DNA from: Clostridia bacterium
Lineage (GTDB): Bacteria > Bacillota > Clostridia > Oscillospirales > CAG-272
DNA length: 64,000 nucleotides
Reading direction: 5' to 3'
Assembly (NCBI GenBank): GCA_017415805.1
Contig: JAFQEC010000032.1
Coordinates: 2,411-66,410 of the forward strand
A model generated the notes under the pieces. That model searched no databases. It worked only from the letters and a program-made list of their open reading frames with translations, and was not told where the DNA came from. The translations under genes and the position numbers were made by a program. Positions 37,483-43,857 of the stretch are shown here, in pieces (the first letter of the stretch is position 1; the number at the start of each line of letters is the position of its first letter).

Positions 37483-38898
37483 ATGAACAACCTGGAAAAA
37501 ACAATGGATAAGATCGTCGCCCTTTGCAAGAACCGCGGCTTTATTTTCCCCGGCTCGGAGATCTACGGCGGCCTTGCCAACTCCTGGGACTACGGCCCTC
37601 TTGGCGTGGAGTTCAAGAACAACGTCAAAAAGGCATGGTGGAAGAAGTTCGTGCAGGAGAGCCGCTACAACGTCGGCCTGGACAGCGCGATCATCATGAA
37701 CCCCGAGGCATGGGTGGCATCGGGCCACGTGGGTGGATTTTCCGATCCGCTGATGGACTGCAAAGCCTGCAAGGCGCGTCACCGTGCGGACAAGCTCATC
37801 GAGGAGTATGCCTTCGAGAACGGCCTTGAGGACAACCCCGCAGGCTGGAGCTTTGAGCAGATGTCTGCGTATATCGAGGAGAAGGGCATCGTTTGCCCCA
37901 CCTGCGGCAAAAAGGACTTCACCGCCATCAAGAAGTTCAATCTGATGTTCAAGACCTTCATCGGTGTCACCGAGGATTCGACCAACACCGTGTATCTGCG
38001 CCCCGAGACCGCACAGGGAATTTTTGTGAATTTCCCCGCGATCCAGCGCTCCACGCGCCGCAAGTTGCCCTTTGGTGTTTGCCAGATCGGCAAATCCTTC
38101 CGAAACGAGATCACGCCCGGTAACTTCGTGTTCCGCACGCGCGAGTTCGAGCAGATGGAGCTGGAGTTCTTCTGCAAGCCCGGCACGGATCTGGAGTGGT
38201 TCGCCTACTGGAAGGATTTTTGCAAGAAGTGGCTGCTCGATCTCGGCATGCGTGAGGAGAATCTGCGTCTGCGCGATCACGACCCCGAGGAGCTGGCCTT
38301 CTATTCCAAGGGCACCACGGACTTTGAGTTCCTGTTCCCGTTTGGCTGGGGCGAGCTGTGGGGAATTGCTGACCGTACCGACTACGATCTCGGTCAGCAC
38401 GCCAAGCACTCCAACAAGGATATGACCTATTTCGACCCCGAGACAAACGAGCGCTACACCCCCTACGTGGTAGAGCCGTCGCTGGGCGCGGACCGCGTGG
38501 CGCTCGCCTTCCTTGTCGATGCCTATGACGAAGAGGTGATCGACGAGGCGAAGAACGACGTGCGCGTGGTGCTGCATCTGCATCCCGCACTCGCACCCTA
38601 CAAGGTGGCGGTGCTGCCCCTCTCCAAAAAGCTCTCCGACAAGGCACTTGAGGTGCGTGACGAGCTGGCCAAGTATTTTGCCGTGGATTACGACGAGACG
38701 GGCTCGATCGGCAAGCGTTACCGCCGCGAGGATGAGATCGGCACGCCCCTTTGCGTGACCGTGGACTTTGAGACGGTTGGCGACGGCGAGAAGGCCGCTG
38801 ACAACTGCGTGACCGTGCGTGACCGCGATACCATGGAGCAGGTCCGCATTCCGATCAGCGAGCTCAAGGACTATATTGAGAAGAAAATTGCATTTTAA
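37483..38898 (+). CDS. glyQS: Glycyl-tRNA synthetase (alpha2 homodimeric type)
   Basis: [56 protein letters not shown]. Confidence 0.98.
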
Positions 38899-38938
38899 GC
38901 AAAAAAAGCGGCGCTGTTGCGCCGCTTTTTGCTTTTTC
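38897..38938 (+). terminator. Intrinsic terminator after glyQS
   Basis: aaaaagcggcgc-tgtt-gcgccgcttttt. Confidence 0.85.
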
Positions 38939-38940
38939 TA

Positions 38941-38969
38941 TTGCATTTTTGCTTCCTTTATGATAAAAT
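38941..38969 (+). promoter_or_regulatory. sigmaA promoter of the kinase-RRE-peptidase operon
   Basis: TTGCAT-17bp-TAAAAT with extended -10 TG. Confidence 0.7.
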
Positions 38970-39000
38970 AAGTGCATATGAGAAAAAAGGGGGGATCGGC

Positions 39001-39711
39001 TTGAAGATCCGTATTGCAGAGCTGAATATCGAGATCCAAAACCGATACCCGTATACCGCACGGCAATGTGTGGGCTATGAGGCGGAGTTTGACCGCGCGG
39101 ACATTACGGTCTGCGTGCCGATCGAGGACGTCAAGCGCGAGTTTGAGCGCTCTGTCGAGGGGTGCTCACCCGGTTACGCCGAGTTCATCTGCATTTACCG
39201 CGCCATCGCACGCGAGCTGCCGCGCTTCGGTGCGTTCGTGTTTCACGCATCGGTGGTGGAGTGTGACGGCAGGGCATACGCCTTTACCGCCACCAGCGGC
39301 ACGGGCAAATCCACCCACACCGCACTCTGGTTGCAGGAATTCGGCGCGCGCGCGCGCATCATCAACGGCGACAAGCCCATCTTTCGCTTTTTTGGGGATA
39401 CGCTCTACGCCTGCGGCACGCCCTGGTGCGGCAAGGAGCGACAGGGCTGTAACGCCGTATCACCCTTGGCGGCACTCTGCTTTCTGGAGCGCGATACCGT
39501 CAACCGCATCGCACCCATTGACGATGCCGAGGCGGTGAAGCATCTGTTCCATCAGATCTTTATCCCCGAGAGCATCGAGGCAGCAGGTCTGCTGTTTGAC
39601 CTGCTCGACCGAACCGTACGCAATATCCCGACCTATTTGTTGGGGTGCAATATCTCGCCCGAGGCCGCACACGTGGCCTACCGCGGCATGCAGAGAGGAG
39701 AAAACGAATGA
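39001..39711 (+). CDS. HPr-kinase-related P-loop protein (HprK-rel/ScmC-like)
   Basis: FHASVVECDGRAYAFTATSGTGKST (His plus Walker A), IINGDKP, GTPWCG; likely TTG start behind aaaggggg. Confidence 0.85.
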   Translation: MKIRIAELNIEIQNRYPYTARQCVGYEAEFDRADITVCVPIEDVKREFERSVEGCSPGYAEFICIYRAIARELPRFGAFVFHASVVECDGRAYAFTATSGTGKSTHTALWLQEFGARARIINGDKPIFRFFGDTLYACGTPWCGKERQGCNAVSPLAALCFLERDTVNRIAPIDDAEAVKHLFHQIFIPESIEAAGLLFDLLDRTVRNIPTYLLGCNISPEAAHVAYRGMQRGENE

Positions 39712-39974
39712 TCCGCAGTAATTTATTTATCAAGCGCAAGATCGGCACGCAATTCGTCATCGTTGCGATCGGCGAGGCCACCAAGCGCTTCAACGGCATG
39801 ATCACCGTCAACGAAACGGGCAGCTTCATCTGGGATCAACTGGAGAAGGATATCACGCTGGACGAGCTGGTCAACGCTGTGACCGCAGAGTACGAGGTGG
39901 ATGCCGACACCGCCCGTGCCGATGCAGGTCGTTTTATCGAGACCCTGAAGGAGGTCGGCGCGCTTGCACAGTGA
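39708..39974 (+). CDS. PqqD-family peptide chaperone / RiPP recognition element
   Basis: RKIGTQFVIV, NETGSFIWDQL, LVNAVTAEYEVD, ARADAGRFIETL; ATGA overlap with the upstream gene; RBS gaggag. Confidence 0.9.
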   Translation: MIRSNLFIKRKIGTQFVIVAIGEATKRFNGMITVNETGSFIWDQLEKDITLDELVNAVTAEYEVDADTARADAGRFIETLKEVGALAQ

Positions 39975-40428
39975 AGTGAACCGCGACTTCTCGCTGGAGG
40001 AGCTGCTGCCGCTAATCACCGAGGTGACCGAGGCAGGCGGGGAATTCCGCTTGCATCCCCGCGGCACGAGCATGCGCCCGATGCTGCGCGAGGGCAAGGA
40101 TTCGGTGGTGCTTGTGCGCCCCGACACACCGCGTAAGCGAGAGATCTATCTCTATCGGCGCGCAAGCGGCCAATTCGTCCTACATCGTCTTTTGCGCGTG
40201 GAAAAGAACGGCACGCTCACCTTCTGCGGTGACAATCAGCTTTATTTGGAGCGCGGCATCGCGGCGGACGCCCTGATCGCACGCGTTTCGGCCTATTACC
40301 GCGGCAAAAAGCGTATTTCCATGGCATCCGTGCGCCAGCGCCTGTATGCCGCCCTGTATTGCTTCTGGCCCTACCGTTGGCTGCGTTATCTCCCGCGCCG
40401 CATGATACAAAAAATATTTCATAAGTAA
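39964..40428 (+). CDS. S24/S26-family signal-peptidase-like protein
   Basis: GTSMRPML (Ser), VLHRL (His), GDN; no N-terminal TM; TTG start behind aaggagg (GTG 39976 is an alternative). Confidence 0.85.
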   Translation: MHSEVNRDFSLEELLPLITEVTEAGGEFRLHPRGTSMRPMLREGKDSVVLVRPDTPRKREIYLYRRASGQFVLHRLLRVEKNGTLTFCGDNQLYLERGIAADALIARVSAYYRGKKRISMASVRQRLYAALYCFWPYRWLRYLPRRMIQKIFHK

Positions 40429-40456
40429 AAAACACCGACAGCGTCGGTGTTTTTTT
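40427..40456 (+). terminator. Terminator closing the kinase-RRE-peptidase operon
   Basis: aaaaaacaccgac-agc-gtcggtgtttttt. Confidence 0.85.
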
Positions 40457-40464
40457 GAAATAGA

Positions 40465-40493
40465 TAAAAGCCACCTAAATAAGGTGGCTTTTA
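40465..40493 (-). terminator. Terminator of the XRE gene
   Basis: taaaagccacct-aaata-aggtggctttta. Confidence 0.8.
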
Positions 40494-40736
40494 CTGTTCG
40501 ATCTCCAAATCTTTCGAATCGAAAATTTCATTATTCAAAAATTCGGCAAGGGGCATGTGAAATCCCCGCGCGAGCAAAATAACTGTGCTCAAGGTCACGG
40601 TTTTATTCCGTCCGTTCATGATGCATTGCATGCTTCCGTGCTGTATGCCCGATTCTTGCTCCAAGCGGTATTGGGACATGTTTTTCTCTTTCAATAGCAT
40701 GGAAATGCGCTTTGCGACGGCGTCGTTTACAGTCAA
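40491..40736 (-). CDS. XRE/Cro-like HTH transcriptional regulator
   Basis: RISMLLKEKNMSQYRLEQESGI...TLSTVILLARGF...EF; TTG start with aggagg RBS. Confidence 0.88.
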   Translation of the reverse strand: MTVNDAVAKRISMLLKEKNMSQYRLEQESGIQHGSMQCIMNGRNKTVTLSTVILLARGFHMPLAEFLNNEIFDSKDLEIEQ

Positions 40737-40766
40737 GCAGATATCCTCCTTGTGAGAAGATTTAAC

Positions 40767-40888
40767 TCCGTAGTTTTACCTACACAAATATAGTATCAAG
40801 AAAATTCAAAAATTATAAGAAGGCACGCCTACATATTGGCTTGATTTTTGTTTCTCCTTATGATATGCTATGTAGGCATACCTACATA
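40767..40888. promoter_or_regulatory. Three related 20-bp operator-like palindromes in a divergent promoter region
   Basis: tatgtagg-cata-cctacata (40869-40888, perfect arms); taagaaggcacgcctacata (40816-40835, 16/20 identical); tccgtagttttacctacaca (40767-40786, 14/20). Confidence 0.7.
40841..40869 (+). promoter_or_regulatory. sigmaA promoter of the SLOG-like gene
   Basis: TTGATT-17bp-TATGCT with extended -10 TG; abuts the perfect palindrome. Confidence 0.6.
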
Positions 40889-40902
40889 ACAGAGAATTGG
40901 TA

Positions 40903-41357
40903 ATGATCATCACATTTTGCGGACACGCTCAATTTCACGGAACAAATGAGCAAGAGCAAAAAATTCTTGATTTCTTAAAAGAAACGGTAGGAGATCAAGG
41001 GGCAGAAATCTATTTGGGCGGATATGGAGATTTTGACCGCTTTGCATACGATTGCTGTAAAAGGTATCAGAAGATGCATCCAAATGTTTCTCTTGTTTTT
41101 GTTGCGCCGTATCTAACAGCGGAATATCAACGTAATCATTTACAATATCAAAAGAAAAGATATGACGCGATACTCTATCCCGAAATTGAAAAAAGGCCAC
41201 AAAGCTTGCGATTATCTACCGAAACAGATATATGGTAGAAAAAGCAAGCTATGTTGTGGCATATGTATCGCATGATTGGGGCGGAGCTTATGCGATGTAT
41301 AAGTACGCAAAAACAAAAAGGAAGGAAATCTTCAATCTTGCAGATTGGGATAAATAA
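40903..41357 (+). pseudogene. SLOG/YpsA(DUF1273)-like protein split by a -1 frameshift
   Basis: Frame 1 ITFCGH...YLGGYGDFD...PYL...YPEIEK; continues in the -1 frame as KLAIIYRNRYMVEKASYVVAYVSHDWGGAYAMYKYAK...IFNLA to TAA 41357; break near A6 run at 41189-41194. Confidence 0.8.
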
Positions 41358-41393
41358 AGATCCACCGCATTTGCGGTGGATCTTTGCTTTTTT
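41356..41393. terminator. Convergent terminator
   Basis: aaagatccaccgca-tt-tgcggtggatcttt followed by gctttttt. Confidence 0.8.
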
Positions 41394-41586
41394 AATGCTC
41401 GTGCCCCTCGTCATCGTCGCCGCCGATCTGGGAGAGGATCTCCTCCTCCAGTCGCTTGCGCTCGATCTCATAGCGGATCATCACCACGGTGTAGTAGGCA
41501 ACGCCCGCCACCATGAGGGCCGCGAGGACGATCGCCACGATGCGCACGATCAGCCGGGAGCGATCCTTTTTTACCGTCTTTTTCAT
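41392..41586 (-). CDS. Small single-TM hypothetical protein
   Basis: Basic N-terminus, one TM helix, acidic His-containing tail; 3 nt downstream of the topoisomerase stop; gagg RBS. Confidence 0.7.
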   Translation of the reverse strand: MKKTVKKDRSRLIVRIVAIVLAALMVAGVAYYTVVMIRYEIERKRLEEEILSQIGGDDDEGHEH

Positions 41587-41589
41587 ACT

Positions 41590-43857
41590 TTACCTCAAAA
41601 TCTCTCCATCCAGCGAGAGCTGCGTGGCGCCCACGTTTTTATCATTCAGCGGCACACCCATAGCGGGGAGCTTATATTTGCGGTAGCCCTTGTCGTCACC
41701 GAAGTCGGTGCGCACCTGTGCCACCTTTTTCTCGCGCCGTCCCATGCTCATCAGCGTCACGCCGTTTGCCGAGCGCGTGGACATCACGGGGATGAGCGAG
41801 GATTTGAACACGATGGCGCGTTCCGCGTCGGAGACCAGCATCAGATCCATGGGATCCTTTTCCACCTCGTGCAAAACTCCCACTATGGGAGAGGCGGCGG
41901 AATACGCCCCTGTGAGTCGCTTGCGGTTGCCCTTGGTCTCGTAGGCCGAGATCGGCACGCGCACGCCCTTGCCGTTCTCAAAAATGAAGATCATGTTCTC
42001 GCCCGCAGGATAGGTGTTCTGCACGCGCATATAGATCGGACGCTCGTCCTTATCCATCTTCAAATACGCATTGAGGAAGTCGCCCATCGCAGAGGCCTTG
42101 GTATTTTCAAAGTCGGCAACTGCCGCACGGTAGACCTGACACTTGTCGGTGAAGAACAGAAGATTGTCCTTGTTCTCGGCGTCGACCGTTTGTGCGATAT
42201 AGTCGCCGTCCTTGACCTTTTGCTCGTCCTTGCCGATGCGCGCACTGCCTTCCAGTGATTTGAAGGTGATCTTTTTGAAATAGCCCTCGCGCGTGAGTAC
42301 CAATCGCACGGGGTAATTCTCCACGACATTCTCCACGTCCTCGACCTCGGGCAGATCCTCGGCGAAGATCAGCTGCGACTGGCGCGGCTTGCCGTATTTC
42401 TTTTTGATCTCGGCCAGCTGCGTGGCGATATGCGCGCGGATCTTGAGCTCATCTGCCAGGATCTCCTCCAGCTCTGCGATCTCGGATTTCAGTGTGTTCA
42501 TCTCGTTCACGCAGTTGAGCATGTATTTTTTGTTGAGGTTGCGCAGCTTGATATTGGCGATATATTCGGCCTGCACCTGATCAATGTCAAAGCCTGCCAT
42601 CAGGTCGGTCACGACCTGCTCGTCGGTCTCGGCGCGGCGGATGATACGAATGGCCTTATCAATATCAAGCAGCACCTTGCCGAGTGCCATCAAAAGGTGG
42701 TAGCGGTCACTCTTTTTGCGCAGGTCAAAGCGCAGCTCACGGCGCACGCACTCGGTGCGGAAGCTGATCCATTCCTTGAGGATGTCCACCACGCCAAGCT
42801 GTCGGGGAGTGGAGTTGATCAGCACGTTGAAGTTGCACTTAAAGCTGTCCTCCAGGGGCGTGAGCTTATAAAGGCGGTTCATCAGCGCATCGGGATCCAC
42901 GCCGCGGCGCAGCTCCAGCGTGAGCTTGAAGCCGTTGAGGTCGATCTCGTCGCGGAAATCGGCGATCTCCTTGACCTTGTTTTCCTTCACCAGGGCGGCA
43001 ATGCTGTCCAGAATGGCTTCAATGCTGGTGGAATAGGGGATCTGCAAAATGTCAATGCAGTTGGCATCCTTGTCGTACTTATAGCGTGCACGGATACGTA
43101 CCGAGCCCTGACCCGTTTCATAGATCTTGCGCATTTGCTCACGGTCATAGATGATCAGACCGCCGCCCGAAAAATCGGGGGCCTTGATCAGATCCAGGAT
43201 CCTGTCTACGCCGGCCTTTGGATTGCGCAAAAGCGCGATCGTTCCGTCACAGATCTCGGCCAGATTGAACGAGCAGATGTTCGACGCCATACCCACCGCA
43301 ATACCCGTATTCGGGGTCACCAGCACGTTGGGGAAGGTGGTGGGCAGGAGCACGGGCTCCTTCATGGTGTTGTCAAAGTTGTCTACGAATTCTACGGCGT
43401 CCTTGTCAATGCCGCCGAACAGCTCCTGACAGATGGGATCCAGCTTGACCTCGGTATAGCGTGCGGCGGCGTACTTCATGTCGCTGGAATACTGCTTGCC
43501 AAAGCTACCCTTGGAGTCCACGAGGGGATGCAGGAGTGCATCGTGACCGCGCGTGAGGCGCACCATGGTCTCGTAAATGGCGGCGTCGCCGTGGGGGTGG
43601 AGCTGCATGGTGCGGCCCACCACGTTCGAGCTCTTTTTGCGCTCACCCGTGAGCAGTCCCATTTTATACATCGTATACAGGAGCTTGCGGTGCGAGGGCT
43701 TGAGGCCGTCGATCTCGGGGATGGCGCGCGAGATGATCACGCTCATCACGTAGGGCATGTAATTCTTCTCAATGGTTTCGGTGATCGGCTGCGGGATCGA
43801 GGGTGCAGGAACGATCTGGGAACGGTCGGTCACGGGGGATGACTTCTTTCTGGCCAT
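41590..43857 (-). CDS. Type IIA topoisomerase subunit A (GyrA/ParC family, ParC-like)
   Basis: RAIPEIDGLKP, HPHGD, AAARYTE catalytic Tyr, GIAVGMA, APDF; no GyrA box visible; start at ATG 43857 behind ggaaagga. Confidence 0.93.
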   Translation of the reverse strand: MARKKSSPVTDRSQIVPAPSIPQPITETIEKNYMPYVMSVIISRAIPEIDGLKPSHRKLLYTMYKMGLLTGERKKSSNVVGRTMQLHPHGDAAIYETMVRLTRGHDALLHPLVDSKGSFGKQYSSDMKYAAARYTEVKLDPICQELFGGIDKDAVEFVDNFDNTMKEPVLLPTTFPNVLVTPNTGIAVGMASNICSFNLAEICDGTIALLRNPKAGVDRILDLIKAPDFSGGGLIIYDREQMRKIYETGQGSVRIRARYKYDKDANCIDILQIPYSTSIEAILDSIAALVKENKVKEIADFRDEIDLNGFKLTLELRRGVDPDALMNRLYKLTPLEDSFKCNFNVLINSTPRQLGVVDILKEWISFRTECVRRELRFDLRKKSDRYHLLMALGKVLLDIDKAIRIIRRAETDEQVVTDLMAGFDIDQVQAEYIANIKLRNLNKKYMLNCVNEMNTLKSEIAELEEILADELKIRAHIATQLAEIKKKYGKPRQSQLIFAEDLPEVEDVENVVENYPVRLVLTREGYFKKITFKSLEGSARIGKDEQKVKDGDYIAQTVDAENKDNLLFFTDKCQVYRAAVADFENTKASAMGDFLNAYLKMDKDERPIYMRVQNTYPAGENMIFIFENGKGVRVPISAYETKGNRKRLTGAYSAASPIVGVLHEVEKDPMDLMLVSDAERAIVFKSSLIPVMSTRSANGVTLMSMGRREKKVAQVRTDFGDDKGYRKYKLPAMGVPLNDKNVGATQLSLDGEILR

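Follow-up and report, generated by a model that had tools for sequence, protein, structure and literature searches.

A kinase-like protein, a PqqD-type protein and a soluble S26-like peptidase: probable core of a dispersed peptide-maturation system in gut Clostridia

What might a bacterium do with a kinase-like protein, a leader-binding protein and a peptidase, encoded one after another, when nothing beside them appears to be there to be bound, modified or cut? The question is raised by three overlapping genes in a 64,000-nucleotide (nt) stretch of Clostridia bacterium DNA (contig JAFQEC010000032.1 of assembly GCA_017415805.1), the whole of which we call the window. We refer to the genes and their products by the working labels K (kinase-like), R (PqqD-type, a recognition element, RRE, of peptides that are ribosomally synthesized and then post-translationally modified, RiPPs) and S (peptidase). 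The genome to which they belong, G000, is 1.47 Mb long, in 38 contigs, and 97.7% complete; the window lies on its contig C29. A first, sequence-only reading took the trio for a ‘minimal, domesticated’ module that recognizes, phosphorylates and cleaves leader-bearing substrates encoded elsewhere. Our own answer is that K, R and S probably form the core of a four-enzyme, leader-guided, RiPP-like peptide-maturation system that is widespread in the order, and that here would act in trans. The fourth enzyme is a nucleotidyltransferase, N, of the NTP_transf_5 family.

The three proteins

In precomputed annotation, K carries the Pfam family ScmC (PF27840), as do all 120 of the 120 homologues among the matches listed (1971 significant). 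The Atlas clusters into which K homologues fall are likewise named ScmC, and the family is found on 32–68% of their members. The AlphaFold model of K (predicted local distance difference test score, pLDDT, 94.8) has a PEPCK-like P-loop kinase fold with a Walker A motif: in Foldseek searches it matches HPr kinase/phosphorylase (HPrK/P) first (1kkl, 1kkm, 1jb1; expect value, E, 5e-6 to 1e-5, probability 1.0, template modeling score 0.3–0.6), and phosphoenolpyruvate (PEP) carboxykinases thereafter. Eight residues are invariant in 20 of 20 K sequences—His82, Ser99, Gly100, Gly102, Lys103, Thr105, Asp124 and Lys125. They include the Walker A residues, the His that precedes them and the Asp-Lys pair that follows, and they stand in what we take to be the order of HPrK/P. 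Sequence profiles of K and of S gave marginal matches only to chains in the PDB, and fold searches were needed for both. One K homologue, P0244 (565 aa), is fused to tyrosine-phosphatase-like domains (PF13350, PF03162), a pairing of kinase and phosphatase that would fit a phospho-intermediate or reversible phosphorylation.

R belongs to the PqqD family (PF05402; 68.1 bits against a cut-off of 23.4). Its best NCBIfam matches are two lasso PqqD chaperone models, both below their cut-offs: NF033530 (35 bits against 70) and NF033536 (34.6 against 80). With the model for ScmD, the corresponding cassette protein, it scores 19.1 bits against a cut-off of 100.

S resembles the signal peptidases of family S26, and has no membrane anchor: no stretch is transmembrane-like, the maximum Kyte-Doolittle hydropathy over 19 residues being 0.73. 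In the AlphaFold model (pLDDT 89.3) its best fold matches are SEC11C and SEC11A (7p2q, 7p2p), followed by LexA, lambda cI and UmuD. A profile of S aligns its Ser-Met, His-Arg and Gly-Asp-Asn boxes with those of human SEC11C (E 0.1), and none of the three (Ser36-Met37, His74-Arg75, Gly89-Asp90-Asn91) varies in any of 18 S sequences. The only Pfam match is to Peptidase_S24, a family whose cut-off two relatives exceed (28.0 and 26.8 bits); the score with TIGR02228 is 14.3 bits, below the cut-off of 51.85. A homologue is labeled ‘S24/S26 family peptidase’ in a public source. S ends in two basic, aromatic helices (residues 123–153), and similar helices, rich in basic and aromatic residues, are found in the C-terminal parts of N1 and N2, the two copies of N in G000; that of N1 reaches a Kyte-Doolittle value of 1.69. 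This shared feature may be a membrane-surface or docking element.

The identities that the sequence-only reading had given the three proteins are borne out by these results, as is the lack of an anchor on the peptidase. An altogether different function has been considered for S: that it is a self-cleaving regulator akin to LexA and UmuD, and the trio a stress switch with no part in peptide maturation. The presence of LexA, lambda cI and UmuD among the fold matches, and of Peptidase_S24 as sole Pfam match, would suit this. S has neither a DNA-binding domain nor an N-terminal cleavage-site region, however; its second catalytic residue is the His of a His-Arg pair, as in SEC11 and SipW, not Lys; and it is tightly paired with an RRE. 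We find the stress switch scarcely credible.

The operon is conserved. Of 41 related genomes, 22 have K, including 16 of the 24 from the same genus, and at 14 of the 16 genus loci K, R and S stand in a row; of the other two, one is truncated where its contig ends, and in one S was not detected. In the seven loci whose flanks were assembled and examined, both the glycyl-tRNA synthetase (glyS) side and the parC-like side are kept. Identity to the window proteins is 46–62% for K, 53–72% for R and 44–63% for S, compared with 57–69% for RecN and 86–96% for GlyRS in the same genomes. The ratio of nonsynonymous to synonymous substitution rates (dN/dS) in the least saturated pairs is 0.09–0.12 for K, 0.10 for R and 0.09–0.21 for S; pairs that include the window give values up to 0.36 and are mostly saturated for dS. 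K, R and S are under purifying selection, and the decay that the sequence-only reading had allowed for is not seen.

Partners scattered through the genome

Beyond these relatives, a survey of one genome per species turned up at least 601 candidate stretches, at least 581 of which encode K relatives. The best 80 of these loci, all from metagenome-assembled genomes of gut and rumen Clostridia, were compared in detail. K, R and S occur together in 39, nine of which also have N; six have K and R only, seven K and S only, and in the remaining 28, five of them cut by a contig end, K is alone. The only other recurrent neighbor family is an ABC (ATP-binding cassette) exporter, in 14 loci, and in four of these it lies between S and N. 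The fullest arrangement, at locus L141, comprises a precursor, a radical S-adenosylmethionine (SAM) enzyme, a fused K~R, S, an ABC exporter and N, and L066 and L077 are similar. The window locus is an ordinary member of this large system. Two apparent R~S fusions (L073, L081), suspected from long open reading frames (ORFs), proved to be upstream extensions without an R domain and were rejected.

G000 has two N genes, both intact and both away from the operon contig: N1 (C21:218-1429) and N2 (C2:59257-60420). Among the 41 relatives, K and N are both present in 21 and both absent from 17; K without N was found once, in a 74%-complete genome, and N without K twice. For a wider view of the association, 301 genomes were sampled evenly from the order; completeness is 90% or more, and contamination 5% or less, in 299 of them. 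K is strong in 97 (four weak matches were set aside), S is present in 103, and N exceeds its cut-off in 119. Of the 97 K-positive genomes, 93 have S and 88 have N; 85 genomes have all three, 31 have only N and 10 only S. The pattern holds across 26 families. In at least 21 genomes K and S are on separate contigs, and where S has K on another contig, R is directly upstream of S in 13 of 14 cases, amid unrelated housekeeping genes. Dispersion is the usual state of this system, which is present in roughly one in three of the genomes sampled.

All four parts are tied to one another by gene fusions: K~R occurs at L141 and in P0246 (475 aa), K~S at L142 (375 aa) and S~N at L160 (509 aa). Further fusions, besides the tyrosine-phosphatase-like~K protein, are N~MORN and, in genomes of the same genus, Wzy_C~N. 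The Wzy_C~N proteins are 858–882 aa long and flanked by GT4 genes (L134 5196-7844, L135 6393-8969, L136 6560-9136), the first two confirmed by Pfam and the third by hidden Markov model (HMM) only. Given the co-occurrence, the fusions and the dispersion, the description of the module as stand-alone and partnerless holds for the window only. Of the partners anticipated elsewhere in the genome, NTP_transf_5 was indeed found, twice over; a short ORF bearing a cognate leader was not found in the assembly.

It is from N that the main rival explanation arises: that K, R and S, through N and at the membrane, mature or regulate a protein or glycoconjugate of the envelope polysaccharide machinery, some component of capsule or EPS assembly, with the precursor-like peptides described below being one class of client, or else a glycan primer or anchor. 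N lies in a polysaccharide locus or is fused to Wzy_C in eight of nine annotated N loci (L134, L135, L137, L138, L139, L141, L143, L145; the ninth, L140, has only a GT2 gene nearby), and L136 encodes a Wzy_C~N protein of the same length, known by HMM only. In G000 itself, N2 sits among genes for a UDP-glucose dehydrogenase, an epimerase, a sugar nucleotidyltransferase and GT2 enzymes. Some loci in which K is the only part adjoin PGA_cap or Wzz/BY-kinase genes (L087, L105 and L096 as annotated; L089 and L110 by cluster membership), a long polysaccharide operon at L141 ends with the K~R fusion and S, and S and N share their basic, aromatic C-terminal helices. Against this, PqqD-type domains are known as binders of peptide leaders only; the precursor-like family shows tight linkage to K and is confined to genomes that have K, with few exceptions; the dispersed R-S pairs have unrelated housekeeping genes for neighbors; and those N genes that adjoin K-R-S are often preceded by an ABC exporter of the peptide type. 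We regard the polysaccharide explanation as unlikely, and as the one most deserving of attention after our own.

The N tree does not single out either copy as the partner of K-R-S in G000: N1, itself unfused, groups with the Wzy_C-fused copies, N2 groups with copies linked to CapE, CapF and CapG, and the N genes adjacent to K-R-S make up a further group. At L138, L139, L141 and L143, N lies beside or among capE-, capF- and capG-like genes, which presumably make UDP-L-FucNAc; the arrangement suggests a specific nucleotide-sugar link.

Precursor-like peptides and a proposed pathway

If K, R and S do act on peptides, then what peptides? Locus L141 offers a candidate, a 55-codon ORF with a good ribosome-binding site, between the radical SAM gene and the ABC exporter and near K~R and S; similar ORFs lie downstream of S in L066 and L077. 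A leader profile, iterated over the loci, yielded an alignment (A4) of 23 ORFs, a family we call P, which matches no Pfam or NCBIfam family. P peptides share an N-terminal stretch of ~23 residues that starts Tyr-x-x-Pro-x-hydrophobic, continues through an acidic-Val pair and a Phe, and closes with the block Asp-Val-Ile-Thr-Thr-Ser. Beyond it the peptides vary, ending in a short tail that is for the most part acidic. This tail is rich in Cys at four of the five loci that have a radical SAM gene or ORF nearby (L066, L077, L141 and L040, not L119), and at L069 besides.

P accompanies K in 15 of the 80 loci, mostly 20–700 nt upstream of it. In the order sample P occurs in 61 of 301 genomes, often as several dispersed copies (up to eight), and 58 of the 61 are K-positive. 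In the genus, matches at E<=0.01 come from 11 of 24 genomes; ten of these are among the 16 with K, and their P is always unlinked to K, while the eleventh, a genome that lacks K and is 70% complete, gives a weak match. The flanking stretches examined around the unlinked P loci contain no K, R, S or N gene. All five of the genomes from which the model had been built gave the peptide back in the search, a control that holds by construction alone. In some genomes (G167, G240, G232, G193, G253) there are four to eight dispersed P-like ORFs, many near contig ends, which hints at repeated or mobile contexts.

These observations lead us to the following scheme. R would bind the conserved N-terminal leader of P peptides, the family with which it shows linkage and co-occurrence, and would present the peptide to K and to S. 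K would, on the analogy of the kinases in phosphorylated-lasso clusters, phosphorylate a Ser or a Thr. S, in the cytosol, would then stand in for the B2 cysteine protease of lasso systems and remove the leader, probably by cutting at a small-x-small junction after the Thr-Thr-Ser block so as to leave Thr at -2. The unlinked N would probably elaborate the phosphate. There is no lasso cyclase, and the product should therefore be linear. In G000 the operon must work in trans, as the sequence-only reading proposed; no partner adjoins it, and the other parts of the system are usually elsewhere in the genome. A bolder version, which we offer tentatively and to which we would give somewhat less than an even chance, is that this is a new, cyclase-less class of lasso-derived RiPPs, common in gut and rumen Clostridia and distinguished by dispersed, multi-copy precursors, a stand-alone RRE, an ScmC kinase, an N from capsule loci, and the first soluble S26 leader peptidase to be guided by an RRE. 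It would yield short linear peptides, acidic and bearing phosphate or glycan, which might have a connection with the assembly of surface polysaccharide.

Several points weigh against this scheme. K has no Pfam match at E values up to 1, Hpr_kinase_C included, and it falls far below the cut-offs of the NCBIfam equivalog model for ScmC, TIGR04249 (26 bits against 125), and of HprK_rel_A (18.6 against 200); we know of no ScmC-family protein with established kinase activity. S does not reach the Peptidase_S24 cut-off (20.2 bits against 23.3). The seven K-S loci are without an adjacent R. In 39 of the 97 K-positive genomes of the order P was not detected. Some P tails contain no Ser, Thr or Tyr, so that the site of phosphorylation, if there is one, may lie in the conserved block, or else the chemistry of K differs. 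The spacing from Tyr to Thr in the P leader is two to three residues longer than the -17 to -2 of lasso leaders. Because the genomes are related to one another, the co-occurrence counts and the Fisher values derived from them overstate independence; and N, found with polysaccharide genes as often as it is, could serve glycan synthesis and co-occur with K for some other reason. The absence of a visible substrate in G000 belongs on this list, too: three profile searches of the assembly found no P (best E 1.8–6.4, which is noise), and motif scans for a leader of the L141 type gave only spurious, GC-rich ORFs.

The last point is softened by the state of the assembly. The final 1.1 kb of contig C15 is syntenic with the flank of the P region in G003, a genome of the same genus, and ~13 kb of G003 next to that flank, its P gene included, has no counterpart in the G000 assembly. 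C15 thus ends at the position syntenic to the P region of G003, and the absence of P is shown for the assembly, not for the organism. A 17-codon ORF in G000 (C9:6515-6574), with six residues like those of a relative's leader, was rejected as a chance resemblance; it is situated in the 5' region of a different gene, and the remainder of the motif is missing from it. The only recognizable RiPP precursor in G000 is a six-cysteine peptide of the SCIFF type (locus L002, on contig C11, 1257-1403), encoded directly upstream of its radical SAM maturase (1468-2844, 458 aa). The SCIFF peptide was considered as a substrate of the trio. Its maturase bears its own RRE, an N-terminal PqqD-like match, and the SCIFF leader is different.

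Want of a precursor might also mean that the operon is a decaying, non-functional remnant of a larger RiPP cluster, the alternative that the sequence-only reading held open should the trio prove to occur only within larger clusters. Larger clusters do exist, in distant relatives (L141, L066 and L077). The remnant explanation fails, however, because K, R and S occur together in nearly half of the 80 loci (39 of 80), with N in nine of those 39, and because dN/dS (about 0.1–0.2) speaks for purifying selection. The three frames are intact and overlapping, the catalytic residues are conserved, the locus is kept in two thirds of the genus (16 of 24 genomes), both N genes of G000 are intact, the assembly breaks just where the relative has its P region, and unlinked P is kept in ten of the 16 K-positive genomes of the genus. 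We consider decay very improbable.

More probable than decay, and still improbable, is that the architecture is right and the chemistry wrong: that K is some other ATP-dependent enzyme, such as one that activates carboxylates, or a phosphorylase, and that S trims, not a leader, but a C-terminal follower. No characterized member of the ScmC family is known to us, K also matches PEP carboxykinase folds, some P tails are devoid of hydroxyl residues, and the conserved part of P could be the part that is retained; the fusion of K to tyrosine-phosphatase-like domains in P0244 would fit any phospho-intermediate. Set against this, the Walker A residues of K, the preceding His and the Asp-Lys pair are all invariant, and the closest systems that have been studied use such kinases on Ser residues of the precursor.

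The enzyme families themselves are already known and labeled in public annotation—ScmC, PqqD, S24/S26 peptidase. What appear to be new are their combination, a leader peptidase of the S26 type, the missing cyclase, the scattering of the genes and the P family. In the literature covered, which excluded subscription papers and supplements, we found no description of the K-R-S gene set or of P, nothing on the function of NTP_transf_5 outside lasso tailoring, and nothing on HPr-rel-A or SynChlorMet systems. If the peptide-maturation reading is correct, a pathway of peptide modification that nobody has studied exists in roughly one in three of the genomes sampled from a major gut order, RiPP biology gains a new type of leader peptidase, an S26 Ser/His enzyme that works with an RRE, and the uncharacterized ScmC family acquires a function. 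RiPP genes would, moreover, be laid out here as a dispersed regulon instead of a cluster, and genome mining that looks for clusters would for that reason miss them. That NTP_transf_5 is associated with capsule loci hints at crosstalk between peptides and glycans on the surface of gut commensals. With the alignment of P in hand, the system can be tested directly.

The operon in its setting, and beside known systems

K, R and S are three same-strand (+) ORFs situated between glyS (37483-38898) and a small, divergent gene for a helix-turn-helix (HTH) protein. The features of the transcript are collected in Table 1. The K stop and the R start overlap by 4 nt, and the end of R and the start of S by 11 nt, making translational coupling plausible, as the sequence-only reading had noted. 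That reading also gave the operon its own promoter and terminator. The glyS terminator does isolate the trio from transcription upstream, and the terminator that closes the transcript stands, on the strength of its folding compared with shuffled sequences; it is missing from the list produced by the terminator scan. The promoter fared less well: a scan for consensus promoters found no site on the + strand in 38931-39000, and the one tabulated, picked by eye, matches the first hexamer at three of six positions. Position 38941, from which the operon was said to run, marks this putative promoter and not the start of a gene, K beginning at 39001.

Table 1. Features of the K-R-S transcript and its upstream boundary (positions in the window)
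Feature	Coordinates	Strand	Description
Intrinsic terminator of glyS	38903..38930	+	12-pair stem and T-run by scan; fold -21.1 kcal/mol, z -4.7, 0/200 shuffles as good
Putative promoter	38941..38969	+	By eye: weak first hexamer (3/6), 17-nt spacer, extended -10; unconfirmed
Ribosome-binding site of K	38988-38994	+	Purine-rich; 7 nt ahead of TTG start
K	39001..39711	+	236 aa, TTG start; ScmC-family P-loop protein, HPr-kinase/PEPCK fold
R	39708..39974	+	88 aa, ATG start; PqqD-type RiPP recognition element
S	39964..40428	+	154 aa, TTG start; soluble S26B/SEC11-like Ser/His peptidase
Intrinsic terminator closing the three-gene transcript	40427..40455	+	Fold -15.9 kcal/mol, z -5.65, 0/200 shuffles as good

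The operon has the same GC content as its flanks. Next to it there is neither a precursor nor a gene for a radical SAM enzyme, for N or for an ABC exporter, in agreement with the sequence-only reading; the family scan behind this statement covered part of the 64-kb window.

Just downstream lies a low-GC island (40460-41590; 0.42-0.48 compared with 0.57-0.59 in the flanks) that is present at none of the related loci. On the minus strand it has a gene for an XRE-type HTH protein (40491-40736; HTH_26 match), and also a small ORF split across two frames (40897-41238 and 41232-41357), the change of frame coming ~40 nt after a run of A. A paralogous pair occurs on contig C6. The island may represent a small insert, mobile or akin to a toxin-antitoxin system, in which there is either a frameshift or an error of sequencing.

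The phosphorylated lasso clusters—paeninodin, pseudomycoidin and Bsf, with genes A, B1, B2, C, D, K and N—offer the closest parallels. The PqqD/RRE protein is separate in both, and R is nearest to the lasso PqqD models. A kinase of the HPr-kinase fold and an NTP_transf_5 are likewise common to both, and the fuller relatives of our system have an ABC exporter too. Tailoring by a kinase and a nucleotidyltransferase is described as typical of Firmicutes lasso clusters (PMC7533575). Lasso leaders carry a YxxPxL motif at -17 to -12 and a Thr at -2 (PMC10368454); the P leader, too, has Tyr-x-x-Pro-x-hydrophobic, and if it is cut where we presume, a Thr stands at the second residue before the cut. 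In the Bsf system the B1 RRE speeds the kinase BsfK and assists the protease BsfB2 (PMC10368454), and we propose that R likewise serves kinase and protease alike.

The differences are as marked. G000 has no Asn-synthetase-like lasso cyclase: six genes match Asn_synthase, one of them strongly, and that one is a true AsnB (TIGR01536, 459 bits; 223 bits with the lasso cyclase model, cut-off 525). Nor is any Asn-synthetase-like gene recurrent among the neighbor clusters of the 80 K loci. No transglutaminase-like B2 protease was found in G000 (best PF13471 match 17 bits, cut-off 26), and a Ser/His enzyme of the S26 type is the presumed leader peptidase, instead. K belongs to Pfam ScmC, not Hpr_kinase_C; and in the window's system the genes are usually dispersed and the precursors multi-copy.

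The SynChlorMet cassette comprises ScmC, ScmD, ScmE and ScmF, and includes two radical SAM/SPASM genes. It, too, has an ScmC-family P-loop protein adjoining a PqqD-family protein, and some relatives of the window locus have a radical SAM enzyme (L040, L093, L079, L141, L066). The window operon, in contrast, has no radical SAM/SPASM partner adjoining it; its system has a peptidase and N, instead.

Signal peptidases of the endoplasmic-reticulum and archaeal type (SEC11, SipW; S26B) give S its best fold match, and the Ser, His and Asp motifs align; S differs from them in being soluble, without a signal-anchor, paired with an RRE, a mere 154 aa long, and below all family cut-offs. HPrK/P, finally, is the top structural match of K, the P-loop and the flanking His and Asp being kept, whereas K, at 236 aa, has an N-terminal subdomain unlike that of HPrK/P, and the partners of its gene are peptide-maturation genes.

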